This document shows, piece after piece, positions 1-7,483 of a DNA stretch of 51,316 nt. Within the stretch, counting starts at the first letter, position 1; the number at the start of each line of letters is the position of its first letter. The notes beneath the pieces are model-generated. The model worked only from the letters and a program-made list of their open reading frames with translations, ran no database searches and had not been told where the DNA came from. Origin of the DNA: an uncultured Candidatus Saccharibacteria bacterium (GTDB lineage: Bacteria > Patescibacteriota > Minisyncoccia > Portnoybacterales > UBA2143); contig CAZVUG010000011.1 of the NCBI GenBank assembly GCA_964629675.1, forward strand, positions 1 to 51,316, read 5' to 3'. A program made the position numbers and the translations under genes.

Positions 1-168
1 GAGGGCAGCTGGGGTATAAGAAGTGATTTTCTCGACGCTGGCAACCTCTTTTGGTCGGCTACTACCAAATCCGGTGGTACCCACTACGCTTGGTTCGTCT
101 ACTTGCACTACGGCTACACGACCTACCCTGATAAGACTCGTGAGTATGACTCCCGTTGTGTCCGGTAG
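1..168 (+). CDS. 3' end of DGR1 target protein (C-type-lectin-like / DUF1566-type variable C-terminus), truncated by the window edge
   Basis: Frame +1 is open from base 1 to TAG at 166-168: EGSWGIRSDFLDAGNLFWSATTKSGGTHYAWFVYLHYGYTTYPDKTREYDSRCVR*. It has the FWS..T....AW.V....G......K.....RCVR pattern of CLec-fold DGR targets and contains VR1. It is absent from the ORF track because it has no start in the window. Confidence 0.92.
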   Translation, partial: EGSWGIRSDFLDAGNLFWSATTKSGGTHYAWFVYLHYGYTTYPDKTREYDSRCVR

Positions 169-182
169 TTCTGGCCATAATT
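35..182 (+). repeat. DGR1 variable region (VR1) with IMH-like 3' end
   Basis: Ungapped alignment to 774-921 (offset 739) gives 21 mismatches, 19 of them at TR adenines. Confidence 0.95.
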
Positions 183-236
183 TGATAATTCGATGATTTA
201 ATTATTCAATTATTTTCTTCATTTCTTCATTTTTTC
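181..236 (+). repeat. Degenerate 8-nt periodic T-rich repeat downstream of VR1
   Basis: tttgataa|ttcgatga|tttaatta|ttcaatta|ttttcttc|atttcttc|attttttc. Confidence 0.6.
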
Positions 237-239
237 ATT

Positions 240-602
240 ATGTCTCGTTATTTCCACATTCCAATTTTTCAGCAAGGATATGATTTGAATTTGCAAATCT
301 ACCGAACAACGCATAATTTTCCCCGGGAGTATAAATATACTTTGGGACAAGAATTGAAAAAAGTATCAAGCGAGCTTTTGGACTATATTGTCAAAGCCAA
401 CCAGAAAAGGGATAAAGATCTCTGTTTTGCCGAAATAAGAAGCCGGATTGAACGTTTGCGAATCTATTTTAGAACAGCCTATGATTTGAAAATAATCAGA
501 ATTGAAAAATTTACCTATTTCAGCCGAACTTTAGAAATGATTGCCAAACAAAATGCTGGCTGGGAAAATTGGTTCTTTGATAAAAAAAGGGAAGTTCAAT
601 GA
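240..602 (+). CDS. avd: DGR accessory variability determinant (Avd-like four-helix-bundle protein)
   Basis: 120 aa basic helical protein with IFQQGYDL...NFPREYKYTLGQEL...LRIYFR...GW motifs; lies between VR1 and TR1. Confidence 0.9.
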   Translation: MSRYFHIPIFQQGYDLNLQIYRTTHNFPREYKYTLGQELKKVSSELLDYIVKANQKRDKDLCFAEIRSRIERLRIYFRTAYDLKIIRIEKFTYFSRTLEMIAKQNAGWENWFFDKKREVQ

Positions 603-603
603 A

Positions 604-773
604 GCCAGAATTCTTATTCAGCTCTAATGAAAGTTAAAGCGAATAAGGAGCGAGCAAAAAAATTATGGCGATTCCGTTTTCCATTAATAAAATCAATGGA
701 ATAAAGTATTGATCAGCCATACCTTGCTTTGGCAAGGATTGGCTGAGTTAAGAAGAAATAGCGGAAATATCTC
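604..773 (+). ncRNA. Structured 5' leader of DGR1 template RNA
   Basis: Hairpins at 613-647, 679-701 and 713-746; helix 672-678/760-766; motifs GCCAGA, GAGCAAA, GCGATTCC and GCGGAAATAT shared with the DGR2 leader. Confidence 0.65.
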
Positions 774-921
774 ACGCTGGCAACAACTTTTGGTCGGCGA
801 CTACCAAATCCAATGATACCCACAACGCTTGGAACGTCAACTTGAACAACGGCAACACGAACAACAATGCTAAGACTAATGAGTATGACTCCCGTTGTGT
901 CCGGTAGTTCTGGACATAATT
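774..921 (+). repeat. DGR1 template region (TR1)
   Basis: AAC/AAT-rich copy of VR1 with 13 AAY codons in the VR frame; non-coding position between avd and RT. Confidence 0.95.
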
Positions 922-2104
922 AATCTTTGTTCTTTGGCTTCCTTGGATTTCTCTTTAATTGAAAATAATTAAAGTTTTCATCAGCTGGCTGAAGATAAGC
1001 TTTCAAAACTTGAAAATGTTTTTGGTAAAGGGATTTTCTTAATTTAAAAGTGTTAGCATGCTTAAATTGGCCGTAATAAGAATTAATAACCGAAAGAATT
1101 TCAGTAAGCTGCTTATTAAAAATTTTGGCATTTTTCGGCAGGGGATTTTGATTAAACTGCCACAATTTTCTCTTGAAATTACCGACTATTCGCCGGCGAA
1201 TTAAAGAATAATGAGGCTTGATTATGAAGCCGACAAAATTAATTCCTTGATTGACGGAGCGGAGAATTGTTTTATCGGGATGAAGTTTTAAAGCAAGTTT
1301 TTCTCTAAGAAAATTATCAATTTGCTTGGACCAATCTTTTAATTGCTGCTGATTTTGGCTGAGGATTAAAAGATCATCAACATACCGTAAATAATATTTA
1401 ATTTTCAATTGGTGTTTTACAAATTGGTCTAGCTCGTTTAAATAAACATTAGCAAAGAATTGGGAAGTTAAATTACCAATCGGCAAACCTTGATTTTGCG
1501 GAACTTTGAAAAGAGATTTATGGCTAGGAATTAGCTGAAAGAGCTTTAGGTCTCCCTTGGCGTAAAAATCCTTAGTCGGATCTTGAAAAATAATTTTCTG
1601 GGCTAGCTGGAGAATTTCCTGATTATGAAGATGTTTTTTAATTAATGCAAAAAGGATGTCTTTCTTCAGAGACATAAAGAAAGCGGAGACATCAGCTTGG
1701 AGATAATAAGCCGGCTGGGAAAAATTAAGGCTGATTTTTCTAAGAAATTTCCTTAAATCTTTAATCGCATAATGAGCTCCTTTGCCTTTGCGGCAGGAAT
1801 AAGAATGGTGGATAAATTTTCTTTCCCAAGTTGGCTCTAAATATCTGACTAGAAGATGATGGATGATCCTGTCTCTGAAATCAGCGGCAAAAACTTCGCG
1901 AGGCTTTGGCTGGGTAACGACAAAACAGATTGATTGGCCGGGATAATAAGCTTGTTGCTGCAATTCTGATTCCAGTTTCAGCAGTCCTTTTTCAAAAGAC
2001 AATTCAAATTTAGCTGCCTTAACAGTTTTTCTCTTTCTTCGCCGGCATTGGTAGTAGGCGATTAAGAGATTCTGGAAAGAAAATAATTTAGATTGGCTAG
2101 CCAT
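920..2104 (-). CDS. DGR reverse transcriptase (RT1), antisense to TR1
   Basis: KPREVFAADFRDRIIHH, SYSCRKGKG, GLPIGNLTSQFFANVYL, YLRYVDD, INFVG; 394 aa with no endonuclease domain; adjacent to a TR/VR pair. Confidence 0.95.
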   Translation of the reverse strand: MASQSKLFSFQNLLIAYYQCRRRKRKTVKAAKFELSFEKGLLKLESELQQQAYYPGQSICFVVTQPKPREVFAADFRDRIIHHLLVRYLEPTWERKFIHHSYSCRKGKGAHYAIKDLRKFLRKISLNFSQPAYYLQADVSAFFMSLKKDILFALIKKHLHNQEILQLAQKIIFQDPTKDFYAKGDLKLFQLIPSHKSLFKVPQNQGLPIGNLTSQFFANVYLNELDQFVKHQLKIKYYLRYVDDLLILSQNQQQLKDWSKQIDNFLREKLALKLHPDKTILRSVNQGINFVGFIIKPHYSLIRRRIVGNFKRKLWQFNQNPLPKNAKIFNKQLTEILSVINSYYGQFKHANTFKLRKSLYQKHFQVLKAYLQPADENFNYFQLKRNPRKPKNKD

Positions 2105-2253
2105 TCATTATATTTTAAAACATGTTTAAAATTAATTTATCAGCCAAGGATTATAAAGAAATTACGATGATTTATATAATCACTCATAATGAGTTTAAAA
2201 AAAATTATTATTTAGCAAAGGTCGGTTAAAAATAATGTAAGTTGTTAATAATT

Positions 2254-2919
2254 ATGATTAAAAAAGAAATATTAAAAAAGAATGAAAAATTAATTAAAAT
2301 TCTGCTGATTATTGCTATCCCGATAGCCATTGCCAGCATCGGCTATTTTTTAGTTAAAGCGCAATCAGTTTCTGATGATTTTACGACTGATGACAATATC
2401 GCTGATACTTGGCAGACAACGGTAGCGACTAGCACAGGAGAGGTTACTTTAGAATTAAGAGATTGCGATGTCGGAGAGGGAATTTGGTTTTGTAATGCTT
2501 CAACTACCTGCGCTAATTATTTGGGCGATGGCGATTATATCTTAGTAGCGCAAGATGACCTGGGGACGACCAAGCAGTGGAAAACCGCTAAGACAGCCTG
2601 CGATCAGCCTGAATGCGGAATCAAAGGAGGTAACAATGGAGATAATTTAGTGGCTGATAACACAGTTGATTTCAGCACTAATGGCTATAATGCGCGGGAT
2701 GCCTGTAAGGCGATTGGCGGTAGATTGCCGACTAAAGATGAACTTGATTGTATTTATGACCATAAAGCTGATTTTGGAAATAATTTTGCTGCCAGCCTCT
2801 ACTGGTCAAGCACGGATTTCTCGGCGGAGCACGCCTGGGTACAGAGCTTCACGACTGGTACTCAGGGCATCTACAATAAGACTCGCAGCACCTACGTTCG
2901 TTGCGTTAGGGGCTGGTAG
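2254..2919 (+). CDS. DGR2 target protein: N-terminal TM/signal, Cys-rich linker, DUF1566/Lcl-like CLec domain with VR2
   Basis: Hydrophobic LLIIAIPIAIASIGYFLVKA; ARDACKAIGGRLPTKDEL; YWSST...AWVQSF..G...K....VRCVRG. ATG at 2254 is preferred over the TTG at 2242. Confidence 0.92.
   Translation: MIKKEILKKNEKLIKILLIIAIPIAIASIGYFLVKAQSVSDDFTTDDNIADTWQTTVATSTGEVTLELRDCDVGEGIWFCNASTTCANYLGDGDYILVAQDDLGTTKQWKTAKTACDQPECGIKGGNNGDNLVADNTVDFSTNGYNARDACKAIGGRLPTKDELDCIYDHKADFGNNFAASLYWSSTDFSAEHAWVQSFTTGTQGIYNKTRSTYVRCVRGW
2783..2913 (+). repeat. DGR2 variable region (VR2)
   Basis: Ungapped alignment to 3134-3264 (offset 351) gives 18 mismatches, 17 at TR adenines. Confidence 0.95.
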
Positions 2920-2920
2920 G

Positions 2921-2967
2921 TTTGAAATTTGTTAATTTGACATCTTGAGTCTTTAAAATTTTAAAAT
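2921..2967 (+). repeat. Degenerate 8-nt periodic T-rich repeat downstream of VR2
   Basis: tttgaaa|tttgttaa|tttgacat|cttgagtc|tttaaaat|tttaaaat. Confidence 0.55.
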
Positions 2968-2972
2968 TTTTA

Positions 2973-3133
2973 TCTATGGCCAGATCTTTCGGATGTGAAT
3001 TTCATTAGCACCGAAAGGAGAGCAAAGCATACCTACCGCGATTCCTGCTGCCTCGGTAAGAAGCGGGGCATTGTAGGTCAAAAGGTCTTTCATGATATCG
3101 TCAGACCTTTGGAGAAAATTTGAGTGCGGGAAT
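2973..3133 (+). ncRNA. Structured 5' leader of DGR2 template RNA
   Basis: Hairpins at 2986-3017, 3049-3070 and 3081-3110; helix 3041-3048/3126-3133; closing stem 2973-2980/3285-3292. Confidence 0.65.
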
Positions 3134-3264
3134 ATTTTGCTGCCAGCAACTACTGGTCAAGCACGGAGAACTCGGCGGAGAACGCCTGGAAACAGAACTT
3201 CACGACTGGTAATCAGAACAACAACAATAAGACTAACAGCAACTACGTTCGTTGCGTTAGGGGA
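3134..3264 (+). repeat. DGR2 template region (TR2)
   Basis: AAC-rich copy of VR2 with 11 AAY codons in the VR frame. Confidence 0.95.
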
Positions 3265-3301
3265 GATGGGTAGGCTTAGCTAATGCCATAGACCATTAAT
3301 T

Positions 3302-3682
3302 ATGCAAATAAGTAATACTAAAATTTACTATAAGCTGTATTTGCTGACAAAACATTTTTACTTGATAGTTAAAAATTTTCCCAAGGAATATAAATATGAA
3401 TTAGGCAGAGATATAATCAGGTTATCGTGGCGTTGTCTTGACTTATCGCTTGAAGCCAACTCAGCCCGAAATCAAGATAAAAGAATAAAAATAACAGAGT
3501 TAAATAAAGTTTATGAAAAATTAAAAATGAGAGTTAGAATGAGCCAAGAAATTAATTTAATTACAATCAATCAATTTGCGCATATTGAAGAATTTTATTT
3601 GCTTGAAATTGGTCGCATGATTGGAGGATGGAAAAAGTGGTCGGAAGATAAAATAGAAAAAAGGCAAGCAGTTGCCAATTAA
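3302..3682 (+). CDS. avd: DGR accessory variability determinant (Avd-like four-helix bundle)
   Basis: IYYKLYLL...NFPKEYKYELGRDI...LKMRVR...EIGRMIGGWKK; immediately upstream of RT2. Confidence 0.92.
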   Translation: MQISNTKIYYKLYLLTKHFYLIVKNFPKEYKYELGRDIIRLSWRCLDLSLEANSARNQDKRIKITELNKVYEKLKMRVRMSQEINLITINQFAHIEEFYLLEIGRMIGGWKKWSEDKIEKRQAVAN

Positions 3683-3696
3683 TAAATTATGGATTT

Positions 3697-4869
3697 ATGG
3701 ATATTTTGACATACAGTAACTTGTACCGCGCTTACTTGGATTGCCGAAAAACAAAACGCAAAACCGCTAACGCTTTAAAATTTGAAATTGATTTAGAACG
3801 TAATTTAGAAATATTATTATCAGAGCTTAAAAGCAAAAAATATCAGCCAGGCCGTTCAATCTGTTTTGTGGCCACCAACCCTGTTCCCAGGGAAATATTC
3901 GCGGCTGAATTTAGAGACAGGATTGTTCATCATTTATTAATTAGAGAAATATTACCCATTGGAGAGCGTAATTTCATTTTTGATTCTTACGCTTGCCGCA
4001 AAAACAAAGGAACGCACCAGGCGATTAATCGGCTAAAAAAATTTATTAGACAAACTACGGGCAACGGAAACAAAAATGTTTTTTATGCCCAATTGGACGT
4101 CAAGGGATTTTTTATGGCTATTGACCAGCGAATTTTATATAATTTAACAAAAAAGTTAGTCAAGAAACAAAAAAGACCGCAACATTGGAAGCAAGATGTT
4201 TTATGGCTGACAAAAAATATTATCTTTCATAATCCAGCGGAAAATTATATAACCAAAGGGGATCCTGCTTTATTCAATCTAATCCCAACGCATAAATCAT
4301 TGCGTTGCCAGCCCAAAGGCAAAGGACTGCCAATCGGTAATTATACTTCTCAGTTTTTCGCCAACTTATATCTAAATGAATTAGACCAATTTATAAAAAG
4401 AAAACTTAAGAGTAAATATTATATTCGTTATGTTGATGACATTATTTTACTAGATGCTGATAAAGAAAAATTAAAATATTTAAGGAATAGAATTAATAAT
4501 TTTTTAATGAAAAACCTAAGATTAGAATTAAATGTAAATAAAGTTCGCTTTCAACTTTTAGTTAAGGGAATAGATTTTTTAGGGTATTTTGTTAAACCTG
4601 ATTATGTATTAGTTAGACAGAAAGTAATTAAGCGGCTGAAGAATAATTTATTTAAGATGAGTTTTGCTAATTTTAAATTTTTAAATAAACAAATGTTTTT
4701 AAAAAGAAACTTAGCGATGATTAATTCTTATTATGGCCATTTTAACCATGCGCAAAGTTTTAATTTAAGAAAAAATATCTATAATAGCCATTTAGCAGAA
4801 CTAAGAAATATTTTTTTGCCCAAGAAAGGATTTAGTTGCTTAAAAATAAATAATAAATATGTTGCCTGA
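3697..4869 (+). CDS. DGR reverse transcriptase (RT2)
   Basis: PREIFAAEFRDRIVHH, DSYACRKNKGTH, GLPIGNYTSQFFANLYL, YIRYVDD, IDFLGY. Confidence 0.95.
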   Translation: MDILTYSNLYRAYLDCRKTKRKTANALKFEIDLERNLEILLSELKSKKYQPGRSICFVATNPVPREIFAAEFRDRIVHHLLIREILPIGERNFIFDSYACRKNKGTHQAINRLKKFIRQTTGNGNKNVFYAQLDVKGFFMAIDQRILYNLTKKLVKKQKRPQHWKQDVLWLTKNIIFHNPAENYITKGDPALFNLIPTHKSLRCQPKGKGLPIGNYTSQFFANLYLNELDQFIKRKLKSKYYIRYVDDIILLDADKEKLKYLRNRINNFLMKNLRLELNVNKVRFQLLVKGIDFLGYFVKPDYVLVRQKVIKRLKNNLFKMSFANFKFLNKQMFLKRNLAMINSYYGHFNHAQSFNLRKNIYNSHLAELRNIFLPKKGFSCLKINNKYVA

Positions 4870-7483
4870 AAATAAAAATAAAATAAATCAGCGCTTTTTA
4901 AATATCCCTACTAATATATTTATGGGCCTGTTTGTAGTTTATTTGTTATTTTTTGCCGGCGTGATTGTTGTAAAAGCTGATGATTATCATAAACAAGGCG
5001 CTTTGCTATCAACAAATCTGTTAAGCGGGCTGGAAGATGTGGCTATTATCCAATCTTTTGAATGTACTGCGGATGTGCCTGCCTCGACTACTTTAAGTGT
5101 GACTTTTTCGCAAGACGGGACTCATTGGGTTAATCAATACGGTTATAAGGGTTTTTATGATGATTGTTCAGACGGCTCTACGACAATTGATCTAACTGCC
5201 TTGGAATGGACTGACGCTAATTTTTACTACAAACTTAAACTTGAAACTGCCAGCACAACTTTGACGCCCACAGTTAGCGGCATTCAAGTTAATTACTCTG
5301 ATAGTTATACGCCGCCAGCTTCTGGGCAGGACGGTTATTATAAACAAGGAACAGTGCTTTCGACTGATTTATTAGAAGGGATAGATTTAAATTTCAACGG
5401 TACGGAAAAATTTGGCTATCAAATTGATTCATTGCCGGCTGGGACGACAGTTCAAGTGCAATTCAGCCAGGATAGCGTTAATTGGTATAGTTCAACTAGC
5501 ACTCTCTGGGCTTGGGATACTTTGTCAGCAGGCGATCATTCTAATGCTGCCAGCGCAGTTGATTTATCAGAACTAAATTGGATTAGAAACAGTTTTTATT
5601 ATAAATTAAAATTTACTACTTCTGATAGTAGCCAAACGCCGGTTGTTAGCGAGATAAAATTATTAAGAAGCAGCACCTCTATTGATGATGATTCACCTGA
5701 TTTTTCAGAAGGGGTTGATGATCCCACAGGCAGCGCGCCTACTCCCTTTATTTCAACAATCATGGAAAACCCTGAATTAGGCCAATTCAGCAAGCTTTTT
5801 GACTGGGAAGCAGAGGTAGAATGCGACCTGACAGCCACGACCACCAGGGTTTTTTCCGGTTCCTTTACCGGAGCAGTCAATCACGGCGACACTGTCACTT
5901 GTGTCAGTGGAGGCATACACAATGGAATTACTGCTCGCGTTGTCTCAACAAGCACCAGCCAGCTTTTGCTGGATAATGCCACTTCTTCAGAAGCGGTTAT
6001 TCTCTCGGCTGGCGATAAATGGCAGGTAGATGGCGATAACTACTTTGCTCTTGCCGGCTCGGCCAACGAATTAGGCGATACTGCATATGCGGTGGCGAAA
6101 ATAGATGGAACCTGGTCTGCTGCCGACACCACGGCTGTGACCATTGACGGCTGGGAAACAGACGCCGATAACTATATCAAAATTTACACCACCAAGACAG
6201 CGAGGCATAATGGCAAGTGGGATGAGGGGAAGTATAGGATTGAGACTTTAGTTGACACTATTGTAAACCAAGAAGATTATGTGCGAGTTGAAGGTCTACA
6301 AATATATACAGAAGATAAAGGTTATATAAATTATGGAGATGGCGAGTTGCACTTAAGCTATTGTATAATTAAATCAGATGGTGGTGATGGTAGTTATGGT
6401 GTATATTATTTCGGAGATCACACTTCTACATTTAAGATGTGGAATAACATAATTTATGATTTTAATGGGACAAGTAGTTATTGCGTCTGTAGAATTGAAG
6501 GCTATTCTTATTGGTACAATAATACTGTTTATAACTGTACTGTTGGTTTTTCGGGTTATACAGGGGACGGAATATTAGTAGCGAAAAACAATATAACTCA
6601 AAGCTGCACGACTGGGTATGACAATTCAAGCTATTATGATACCCACTCCCATAACATCTCATCAGACGCTACATCGCCAGATGCGGCGTATCAGAACAAG
6701 AATGTTTCTTTTGCCGATGAGGATGGCGATGACTTTCACTTGGCGGGGAATGATGCGGCGGCGCGCAATGCCGGGGTGGATTTGTCTGCTGATGCTAATT
6801 TGGCTTTTTCTGATGATATTGATGGGGAAGAAAGAGGTTATCGGGGCTGGGATATTGGCGCGGACGAGACCTTTAAGTCCCTGATGATTAACACTCCCCA
6901 GAGAAAACGCCTCACAGACGGCTTAGTCGGCTACTGGACCTTTGACGGTCCGGATATGGACTGGTCATCTACCACGGCTGAAGTATTGGACCAAAGCGGA
7001 CAAGGCAATGACGGCGATGTGACCAATATGTCACAACAGTCTGTCGCCTCTGGTATCTCCGGCCAAGCGTTGGACTTTGACGGCGTGGATGATTATGTGG
7101 ATGCGGGGAATCTTGGCAGCGGAATTAAAACAATAGCTTTCTGGCTTAAGGCAGACGACATAACTAGCCGTAAGATTATTAATATAGACGGAACAGATCA
7201 AATTGAGATTGATGGCAGTAGTGATATTCAAGCAACCAGTTTTCCAAACGCAACTATTTATGTAGACGGAGCAGTTGCATCAACCATAACCGATGATTGG
7301 CACTTTGTTACTATCACAGATAGCACTGGAGTTAACGCTTCAACGATGAACATTGGGCGTGTTTCAACATCATATTTCGATGGCCTTATTGACGAAGTGC
7401 GGATATATGACCGAGCGTTGAGCGTGGATGAGGTTGGGGAGTTATATCGATCTGGATCAAGAAGATATAAGATTAAGCAATAA
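4859..7483 (+). CDS. Large secreted/surface protein: two tandem N-terminal repeat domains, beta-helix-like middle, C-terminal LamG/concanavalin-like domain
   Basis: Signal-like GLFVVYLLFFAGVIVVKA; duplicated KQG..LST.LL.G...FSQD...W...FYYKLK...TP.VS.I; WNNIIY/YNNTVY and WDIGADE; GLVGYWTFD...ALDFDGVDDYV...FDGLIDEVRIYDRALS. The start could be the ATG at 4922. Confidence 0.8.
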   Translation: MLPENKNKINQRFLNIPTNIFMGLFVVYLLFFAGVIVVKADDYHKQGALLSTNLLSGLEDVAIIQSFECTADVPASTTLSVTFSQDGTHWVNQYGYKGFYDDCSDGSTTIDLTALEWTDANFYYKLKLETASTTLTPTVSGIQVNYSDSYTPPASGQDGYYKQGTVLSTDLLEGIDLNFNGTEKFGYQIDSLPAGTTVQVQFSQDSVNWYSSTSTLWAWDTLSAGDHSNAASAVDLSELNWIRNSFYYKLKFTTSDSSQTPVVSEIKLLRSSTSIDDDSPDFSEGVDDPTGSAPTPFISTIMENPELGQFSKLFDWEAEVECDLTATTTRVFSGSFTGAVNHGDTVTCVSGGIHNGITARVVSTSTSQLLLDNATSSEAVILSAGDKWQVDGDNYFALAGSANELGDTAYAVAKIDGTWSAADTTAVTIDGWETDADNYIKIYTTKTARHNGKWDEGKYRIETLVDTIVNQEDYVRVEGLQIYTEDKGYINYGDGELHLSYCIIKSDGGDGSYGVYYFGDHTSTFKMWNNIIYDFNGTSSYCVCRIEGYSYWYNNTVYNCTVGFSGYTGDGILVAKNNITQSCTTGYDNSSYYDTHSHNISSDATSPDAAYQNKNVSFADEDGDDFHLAGNDAAARNAGVDLSADANLAFSDDIDGEERGYRGWDIGADETFKSLMINTPQRKRLTDGLVGYWTFDGPDMDWSSTTAEVLDQSGQGNDGDVTNMSQQSVASGISGQALDFDGVDDYVDAGNLGSGIKTIAFWLKADDITSRKIINIDGTDQIEIDGSSDIQATSFPNATIYVDGAVASTITDDWHFVTITDSTGVNASTMNIGRVSTSYFDGLIDEVRIYDRALSVDEVGELYRSGSRRYKIKQ

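Follow-up and report, generated by a model that had tools for sequence, protein, structure and literature searches.

The closest described system to the one reported here is the diversity-generating retroelement (DGR) of phage BPP-1. In the BPP-1 RNA, spacer (Sp) nucleotides Sp47-56 pair with TR117-129 of the template repeat (TR) to form the template:primer duplex, and Sp59-70 pair with avd369-379, upstream of the TR, to form the cPRT stop duplex (Handa et al. 2018, 2024 preprint). G57 and C58 lie between the two duplexes, A56 primes, and G57 stands opposite the first copied base, G117; the arrangement was solved by cryo-electron microscopy (cryo-EM), with the TR looped out (Handa et al. 2024 preprint). 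As described by Handa et al. (2018), which base occupies Sp56 is not strictly essential and cDNA synthesis is independent of the target. The sequence for initiation of mutagenic homing (IMH) sets the homing direction in BPP-1, and the Discussion of Naorem et al. (2017) offers the idea that the RNA primer linked to the cDNA pairs with IMH DNA and thereby sets that direction. Here we describe two DGRs, DGR1 and DGR2, that occupy bases 1-4900 of a 51,316-nt contig (CAZVUG010000011.1) from an uncultured Candidatus Saccharibacteria bacterium; we call this whole stretch the window.

In both elements a short segment of the non-coding leader upstream of the TR is complementary to the 3′ flank of the TR and to that of the variable repeat (VR). 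The first-pass annotation of these segments as a candidate guide or closing helix overlooked what is most likely their role, that of cis-primer for cDNA synthesis. On our analysis, the probable explanation is that 660-669 in DGR1 and 3031-3037 in DGR2 are the primer strands of permuted DGR RNAs and that pairing with the IMH is a second step. That second step, which draws on comparative data and on the published hypothesis, is less certain. A spacer-like domain placed before the TR would amount to a circular permutation of the BPP-1 order.

Results

Each leader segment matches the ends of its own TR and VR

All four complementarities claimed in the first-pass annotation were exact when the sequence was read directly. 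In DGR1, 660-669 (AAATTATGGC) and 174-183 (GCCATAATTT) are exact reverse complements over 10 bp, as are AATTATG (661-667) and CATAATT (915-921) over 7 bp. In DGR2, ACCTACC (3031-3037) is the exact reverse complement of GGTAGGT at 2915-2921 (7 bp), and positions 3032-3037 are that of GGTAGG at 3269-3274 (6 bp). The TR pairing of DGR1 is interrupted by one mismatch, G668 opposite A914, and resumes with C669:G913; C669 pairs with G174 as well as with G913. Only two DGR1 pairs are specific to the VR side, G668:C175 (the TR has A914) and A660:T183 (the TR has A922), and the sole VR-specific pair of DGR2 is A3031:T2921. The co-resident elements have unlike primer strands, each fitting its own TR and VR.

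The features of the two putative RNAs and of their target flanks are as follows.

DGR1
35-173, + strand: VR1 (direct repeat 35-182 / 774-921, 86% identical)
174-183, + strand: IMH-like segment that follows VR1 and complements 660-669 perfectly over 10 nt
Between the bAvd gene and TR1: non-coding leader, 170 nt
611-649, + strand: long 5′ hairpin closed by a GAAA loop and separated from the primer strand by 10 nt
660-669, + strand: putative primer strand, pairing with TR 913-921 with one mismatch and with the VR flank 174-183 perfectly
670-671, + strand: linker; G670 lies opposite TR G912, and A671 is able to pair with T911
672-678, + strand: 5′ strand of a stop-type duplex (TTCCGTT), pairing with 760-766
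679-701, + strand: internal hairpin 1 (TTCCATT ... AATGGAA), read in the sequence
713-746, + strand: internal hairpin 2 (713-727 with 732-746)
760-766, + strand: 3′ strand of the stop-type duplex (AGCGGAA), 7 nt ahead of TR1
774-912, + strand: TR1, the template, repeated in VR1
913-921, + strand: IMH*-like 3′ end of TR1, the putative primer-binding site (GACATAATT)

DGR2
2783-2914, + strand: VR2 (repeat 2783-2912 / 3134-3263, 87% identical)
2915-2921, + strand: IMH-like segment of VR2 (GGTAGGT), the complement of 3031-3037
Between the target open reading frame (ORF) and TR2: leader, 210 nt
2985-3018, + strand: 5′ hairpin, flanked by GCCAGA ... GGAGAGC
3031-3037, + strand: putative primer strand (ACCTACC), 7 bp with its own VR end
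3038-3040, + strand: linker GCG; G3038 lies opposite TR2 G3268
3041-3048, + strand: 5′ strand of a stop-type duplex (ATTCCTGC), pairing with 3126-3133
3126-3133, + strand: 3′ strand of the stop-type duplex (GCGGGAAT), abutting TR2; 8 bp including one G-U
3134-3268, + strand: TR2, repeated in VR2 (3134-3274 including the IMH*-like end)
3269-3274, + strand: IMH*-like putative primer-binding site of TR2 (GGTAGG)

The earlier suggestion that such a helix loops out the TR was supported. The segment pairs with the 3′ end of the TR, and a strand lying 2-3 nt further on pairs with sequence just 5′ of the TR, which places two helices side by side. The topology is that of the BPP-1 cryo-EM structure, and it recurs, with covariation, in related elements. 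In both window elements this spacer-like domain sits upstream of the TR. TR1 lies directly against the stop codon of a reverse transcriptase (RT) gene that converges on it, and TR2 ends 27 nt before avd, so that neither leaves room for a downstream spacer.

A long hairpin precedes the primer strand by ~10-13 nt in both elements. The fold of 604-659 has a free energy of -15.6 kcal/mol (z = -3.21), and that of 2978-3030 has -12.2 kcal/mol (z = -1.46), which is weak alone. The DGR1 hairpin at 611-649 is a candidate counterpart of the Avd-binding stem-loop of BPP-1 (Sp3-33). No Rfam family matched window positions 1-5000 on either strand up to E = 1.

To compare each segment with the target ends of other elements, we set the 14 nt directly 5′ of the independently located stop strand against the VR ends of its own locus and of other loci. 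The 10-bp VR run of DGR1 had an empirical p value of 0.012, foreign VR ends giving a mean of 4.30 bp, and the 7-bp run of DGR2 had a p value of 0.062. The surplus of VR over TR pairing in the window (2 and 1 pairs) was not significant, with rough p values of ~0.06 and 0.3; only comparative data bear on a preference for the VR. The octamer GCGATTCC has two occurrences in the window, 668-675 and 3038-3045; shuffles predict 1.44, so that the octamer by itself is not significant.

Three further observations concern the leaders. In both window elements, and likewise in most of the relatives from candidate phyla, the 5′ hairpin stands between two conserved motifs, GCCAGA and GGAGAGC, as judged by comparing the leaders of the window with those of related loci L003-L013, L030-L037 and L092-L093. 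The complete DGR1 RNA lies between the arms of a 22-nt inverted repeat, 586-607 / 935-956 (82% complementary), of which one arm falls at the end of avd and the other shortly after TR1, within the RT gene of the opposite strand. The repeat may be an outer closing helix or a chance match, being one of 504 inverted pairs in 5 kb. In the subfamily consensus fold, a 3-bp helix of 654-656 with 667-669 would sequester the 3′ end of the primer strand; it shows zero compensatory changes, which is evidence neither way.

The two-helix geometry recurs upstream of the TR, and its stop helix covaries

The comparative set comprised 80 loci from one-genome-per-species contigs and 2 from metagenomes, with 29 from the class of the window. 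A scan of viral sequences returned 0 loci, and the metagenome scan with the DGR1 reverse transcriptase (RT1) returned 2 loci only. Self-comparison gave 102 TR/VR pairs in 81 loci. The geometry was scored where a site able to form at least 6 Watson-Crick pairs with a repeat end preceded a stop strand by 0-4 nt; stop strands were located independently, as runs of at least 7 bp with the 28 nt that surround the start of the TR.

A site complementary to the VR end adjoined the stop strand in 52 of 70 records, against ~14 by chance, and a site complementary to the TR end did so in 46 of 75, against ~18 by chance. Counted per distinct TR element, the combined primer and stop geometry was present in the 150 nt upstream of the TR in 70 of 94 elements; the same length of sequence downstream had it in 13 of 94. 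Relaxing the gap raised these counts to 78 upstream and 20 downstream. BPP-1, used as a control, was missed at a gap of up to 4 nt, because a bulge splits its stop helix, and was found at up to 8 nt, downstream only.

Strands placed by the stop helix also preferred the ends of their own element. They formed a mean of 18.15 pairs with their own TR and VR ends (n = 97) and 15.31 with foreign ends (n = 970), and 30 of the 97 strands exceeded the 95th percentile of the control. The run length of the stop helix itself separated own from foreign ends weakly (mean 8.72 versus 7.94; p = 4e-6).

We aligned the DGR1 leader with those of 5 relatives. The consensus had 46 pairs, 33 of which showed a compensatory change. 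Paired cells made up 94% of the total, compared with 81% after column shuffling and 34-48% with slid partners, though with only six related sequences these controls overstate independence. In the stop helix 6 of 8 pairs carried compensatory changes and 97.9% of cells were paired. The 5′ hairpin (helix 2) had compensatory changes in 8 of 12 pairs in the relatives, internal hairpin 2 (helix 6) in 10 of 13, and the site of internal hairpin 1 (helix 5) in all 8 of its pairs in the relatives, the window's own row being misaligned there. The leaders fall into different subfamilies, DGR1 with L011-L013, L092 and L093 and DGR2 with L003, L004, L007, L030, L031 and L037. The alignment of the DGR2 subfamily (subfamily A) supported two hairpins and did not predict the stop helix.

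Three other approaches were rejected. RNAalifold found 4 pairs only in a MAFFT alignment of 15 sequences, because the helices were out of register; the subfamily alignments did better. A finder of sites at shared positions chose noise in many loci, and single-linkage superclustering put 62 of 67 elements in one group, leaving no usable test.

Positions next to the predicted priming pair fit the VR flank better than the TR

The first-pass annotation had stated that the segment matches the VR for longer than it matches the TR. This is true of both window elements and fails as a general rule: among 70 related elements, the longest run was with the VR in 38, with the TR in 26 and equal in 6. To treat the two repeats alike, we anchored each comparison at the 3′-most leader base that pairs with both and used one representative per cluster (37 clusters). 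At offsets 1-4 from this anchor, columns in which TR and VR differ were matched by the VR only in 28 cases and by the TR only in 8 (p = 0.0012), whereas at offsets 5-10 the preference reversed (TR only, 63; VR only, 38; p = 0.017). Over all 16 columns examined, TR-only matches numbered 263 and VR-only matches 222. Distinct primer 5-mers favoured the VR in 17 cases and the TR in 6, with 10 ties (p = 0.035).

The proposal of RNA-guided target recognition, made in the same annotation, thus finds agreement close to the anchor and disagreement farther out. A narrower rule holds: the TR is mismatched one to three positions from the priming pair and the VR is not. BPP-1 obeys it, with U54 opposite C120 in the TR and A120 in the VR. 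In the BPP-1 record, Sp48-56 complements VR118-126 perfectly over 9 bp, whereas the TR has mismatches at 120 and 126 and a wobble at 124. In 36 of the 55 VR-only columns the TR base is other than A, so adenine mutagenesis cannot explain those differences. A guide role in IMH recognition is plausible on these sequence comparisons.

For the window itself, we considered the change from A914 to C175 as ordinary adenine mutagenesis and judged this less likely. Relatives with an ATTGC-type primer mostly have a VR C opposite the primer G, and A914 sits 3′ of the start predicted by analogy with BPP-1.

Tandem units containing TTTG, with a period of mostly 8 nt, occupy the 50 nt after the VR in many loci. 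Of 97 VR flanks, 31 contained at least three TTTG, whereas none of 85 TR flanks did (p = 3e-13, Mann-Whitney). Loci with such units include L011, L012, L058, L092 and L095, together with 176-215 and 2921-2950 in the window, where the units read ATTTGATA / ATTCGATG / ATTTAATT ... (repeat D3, spacing 8) and the first overlaps the IMH-like segment 174-183. These units may be a target-site element in the role of the stem-loop downstream of the VR in BPP-1.

Genes and repeats of the two elements and possible activity of DGR1

The genes accompanying the two RNAs are listed below.

Ending at 168 (stop codon 166-168), + strand: target ORF of DGR1, carrying VR1 at its 3′ end
240-602, + strand: bAvd-like accessory protein of DGR1 (Pfam bAvd PF22296, E = 8.3e-15, above the curated cut-off)
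920-2104, - strand: reverse transcriptase of DGR1, convergent with TR1 (Pfam RVT_1, E = 7.8e-19)
2242-2919, + strand: target ORF of DGR2 (Pfam Lcl_C, E = 5.6e-11)
3302-3682, + strand: bAvd-like protein of DGR2 (Pfam bAvd, E = 1.7e-16, above the curated cut-off)
3697-4869, + strand: reverse transcriptase of DGR2 (Pfam RVT_1, E = 5.9e-20)

Both elements have an RT related to those of DGRs (as judged from Pfam matches and, for RT1, identity to bRT), a TR/VR pair with A-type mismatches and an Avd. By self-blastn, TR1 and VR1 differ at 21 positions, a fraction of 0.9 of them at TR adenines, and TR2 and VR2 at 17, a fraction of 0.94 at TR adenines. Over 313 aa, RT1 shares 30% identity with BPP-1 bRT (E = 1e-48); its identity to RT2 is 47%. 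Neither TR had a VR match in the window's own genome beyond its known partner. That genome, 494,614 bases in 17 contigs, carries the two elements side by side. Of 401 genomes sampled from its class, this one among them, 118 contained RT relatives (E of 1e-30 or better).

The repeats of DGR2 differ by a 3-nt in-frame indel (VR2 2911-2916 against TR2 3264-3269), right before the common GGTAGG, which sets the IMH-like GGTAGGT of VR2 off from the VR/TR homology. The target would end in ...RGW*, whereas TR2 encodes ...RGDG*; this is unlike simple cDNA replacement.

Contigs from two runs, X1 and X2, differ from the DGR1 repeat at 48-130 and 787-891. These runs are possibly the assembly's own source sample, and such contigs drop rare variants. 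None of the runs listed for this stretch was of RNA. All the alternative letters on the TR copy (824-860) fall at A, and the VR copy has four (85, 86, 94 and 100). The pattern resembles population variants of VR1, and on that reading DGR1 is probably active. The variant contigs do not reach VR positions 130-145 or 914/175 and hence are silent on the constancy of the IMH. One X1/X2 contig tracks the repeat to ...CCGG, at positions 164 and 903, and then continues into unrelated A-rich sequence that replaces the stop codon and the IMH-like segment. Such a contig might come from a further copy, or from a strain variant, in which the primer-complementary flank is missing.

Discussion

A model for the upstream DGR RNA

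From 5′ to 3′, the RNA would consist of a long hairpin, a spacer of ~10 nt, the primer strand, a linker of 2-3 nt that begins with or contains G, the 5′ strand of the stop helix, two hairpins, the 3′ strand of the stop helix, the TR and the primer-binding site (IMH*). The primer strand would pair with the last 6-9 nt of the TR, with the stop helix adjoining and the TR looped out between them, and the hairpins would bind Avd or RT. By analogy with BPP-1, cDNA synthesis is predicted to start from the last paired nucleotide of the primer strand, C669 in DGR1 and C3037 in DGR2, with G912 and G3268, opposite the linker G, as the first bases copied, and to end at the stop helix. The primer RNA would remain on the 5′ end of the cDNA and pair with the DNA just 3′ of the VR, the IMH. 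The IMH fits the priming-proximal bases better than the TR does, which would help the cDNA to find the VR and not the TR and would keep two co-resident elements apart.

We also put forward, tentatively and with somewhat less conviction than doubt, a broader idea. DGR RNAs would come in at least two circularly permuted layouts, and the primer strand of the upstream layout, that of the window and of most relatives of this RT, would double as a short programmable guide that insulates co-resident elements from each other through different guide/IMH pairs. Its 3-4 priming-proximal bases would be mismatched to the TR and matched to the DNA 3′ of the VR, so that the RNA-cDNA chimera lands on the VR and never on the TR.

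Alternative explanations

Several points count against the primer-strand interpretation. The helices are short (6-10 bp), and the summed longest runs to TR and VR, searched across the leader with no anchor, were no better than in shuffles, so the case rests on position and recurrence. The related elements are not independent of one another, and the failure to find BPP-1 at the strict gap means that the geometry test is imperfectly sensitive and that some true cases were lost. In DGR1 the priming base is ambiguous: C669 agrees with the spacing in relatives and G667 with the register of DGR2. The one VR-specific pair of DGR2 lies at the distal end of its segment, away from the priming pair, and the unexplained indel between VR2 and TR2 adjoins this site. 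For the guide step in particular, the preference reverses at offsets 5-10, the TR has the longest run in 26 of 70 elements, and some elements (for example L017-L020, L061 and L108) favour the TR throughout; in addition, a large 'CACTGT' group gives many of the VR-only columns, and the clusters are not fully independent. The short helices, an octamer count within expectation and an unanchored search at shuffle level would all suit functionless chance matches in AT-rich intergenic DNA. We disfavour that explanation as highly improbable, given an upstream excess of 70 to 13 among 94 related elements, own-versus-foreign controls that favour the element's own ends, covariation of the adjoining helices and a layout that agrees with the solved ribonucleoprotein.

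The segment might instead be a cis-primer and closing helix and nothing more, its complementarity to the VR following from VR/TR homology and targeting being left to proteins or other DNA. Most of the VR match is indeed common to the TR (7 of 10 bp in DGR1, 6 of 7 bp in DGR2), the count over all 16 columns leans to the TR as does the longest run in 26 of 70 elements, and the TTTG repeats are another target-specific feature of VR flanks that TR flanks do not share. We nevertheless find this rather unlikely, since beside the priming pair the VR-only columns outnumber the TR-only ones by 28 to 8, the non-A base of the TR in 36 of 55 columns calls for another cause of recurrent VR/TR differences, the same pattern is seen in BPP-1, and there the IMH sets the homing direction (Naorem et al. 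2017). Another way to obtain such a pattern would be for the VR flank to be rewritten from the primer, the RNA attached to the cDNA being copied into DNA, which would make the IMH a product and not a landing site. The VR-specific matches do cluster beside the cDNA start, within reach of copying across the RNA-DNA junction, and several elements, among them L052 and BPP-1, have a perfect VR complement of 9-11 nt. We consider rewriting improbable: in BPP-1 the boundary of marker co-conversion lies upstream of the first copied base, and removal of the RNA by RNase H has been proposed (both Naorem et al. 2017), while primer and VR show a mismatch or wobble in several elements, for example L011, L080 and DGR2 (G3038 opposite T2914). 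Primer strands of permuted RNAs, with IMH pairing as a possible second step of lesser certainty, remain our preferred explanation.

Significance

BPP-1 has already provided the primer strand, the looping-out of the TR and the hypothesis of a guide. Our literature search, which left most subscription journals outside its reach, found neither a description of a DGR spacer that is permuted or lies upstream nor a comparative study of how primers pair with the IMH. A published survey of RNA conservation spanned, in its reported scope, only 40 nt upstream and 100 nt downstream of the TR, so the upstream layout would have escaped it. How DGR cDNA finds and replaces the VR is described as poorly understood (Handa 2024 preprint; PLoS Genet 2026, PMC12875486), and the only printed primer-IMH idea that we found rests on one phage (Naorem et al. 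2017). To this we add a second layout of DGR RNA, with the spacer-like domain upstream of the TR, and comparative evidence that priming-proximal positions fit the VR over the TR, often at non-A positions. For the re-engineering of DGRs, the results locate what is probably the essential RNA in a large clade that includes many candidate-phyla bacteria. The window offers a natural pair of co-resident elements with distinct, self-matched primer strands, a ready-made system for swaps. If the guide reading is true, changes to ~10 nt of RNA and to the VR flank could redirect a DGR's choice of target.

Comparison with known systems

Retron msr-msd RNA has closing inverted repeats, and its cDNA is primed from the 2′-OH of an internal G. 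The DGR RNAs proposed here are likewise self-priming templates of an RT, in which a helix of flanking sequences sets an internal nucleotide beside the end of the template. Retrons differ in belonging to another RT clade, in having no Avd and no VR target, and in yielding multicopy single-stranded DNA (msDNA) and not a homing cDNA. In group II introns, pairing of exon-binding with intron-binding sites (EBS-IBS) is an RNA-guided choice of DNA target. The likeness is one of working, short segments of a retroelement RNA that would select a DNA site by pairing; ribozyme, reverse splicing and target-primed reverse transcription belong to the introns and not to the DGRs described here.

In keeping with the idea of Naorem et al. 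(2017), the window primer strands pair more fully with the VR flank than with the TR, and in relatives the VR preference holds at priming-proximal positions. That work concerned one element, whereas ours covers 37 clusters and about four positions, with the TR favoured farther out; in both cases the pairing is deduced.

The likeness to BPP-1 itself is extensive. As there, the putative primer strand and the stop strand belong to one continuous RNA and are joined by a 2-nt linker whose G faces the first G to be copied; the two helices leave the TR looped out, and the stop helix closes a few nucleotides 5′ of it. A long hairpin lies ~10-13 nt ahead of the primer strand, and RT and Avd are present. 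Segment 660-669 occupies the position of Sp47-56 relative to the stop strand, the predicted pairing of the primer strand with the 3′ end of the TR spans 7 bp plus 1 in DGR1 and 6 bp in DGR2, and, from the sequence, G670 opposite G912 and G3038 opposite G3268 parallel G57:G117. Hairpins at matching places (611-649, 679-701 and 713-746) covary in relatives and may bind Avd or RT. The differences are that the spacer-like domain lies upstream of the TR, where BPP-1 has it between the TR and the RT gene, that the stop strand meets its partner across two hairpins and not across the TR, that the predicted priming base is C and not A, and that the RT is only 30% identical to bRT. If the ends of the BPP-1 RNA were joined and the circle then cut between IMH* and the Avd-binding hairpin, the order found in the window would result.

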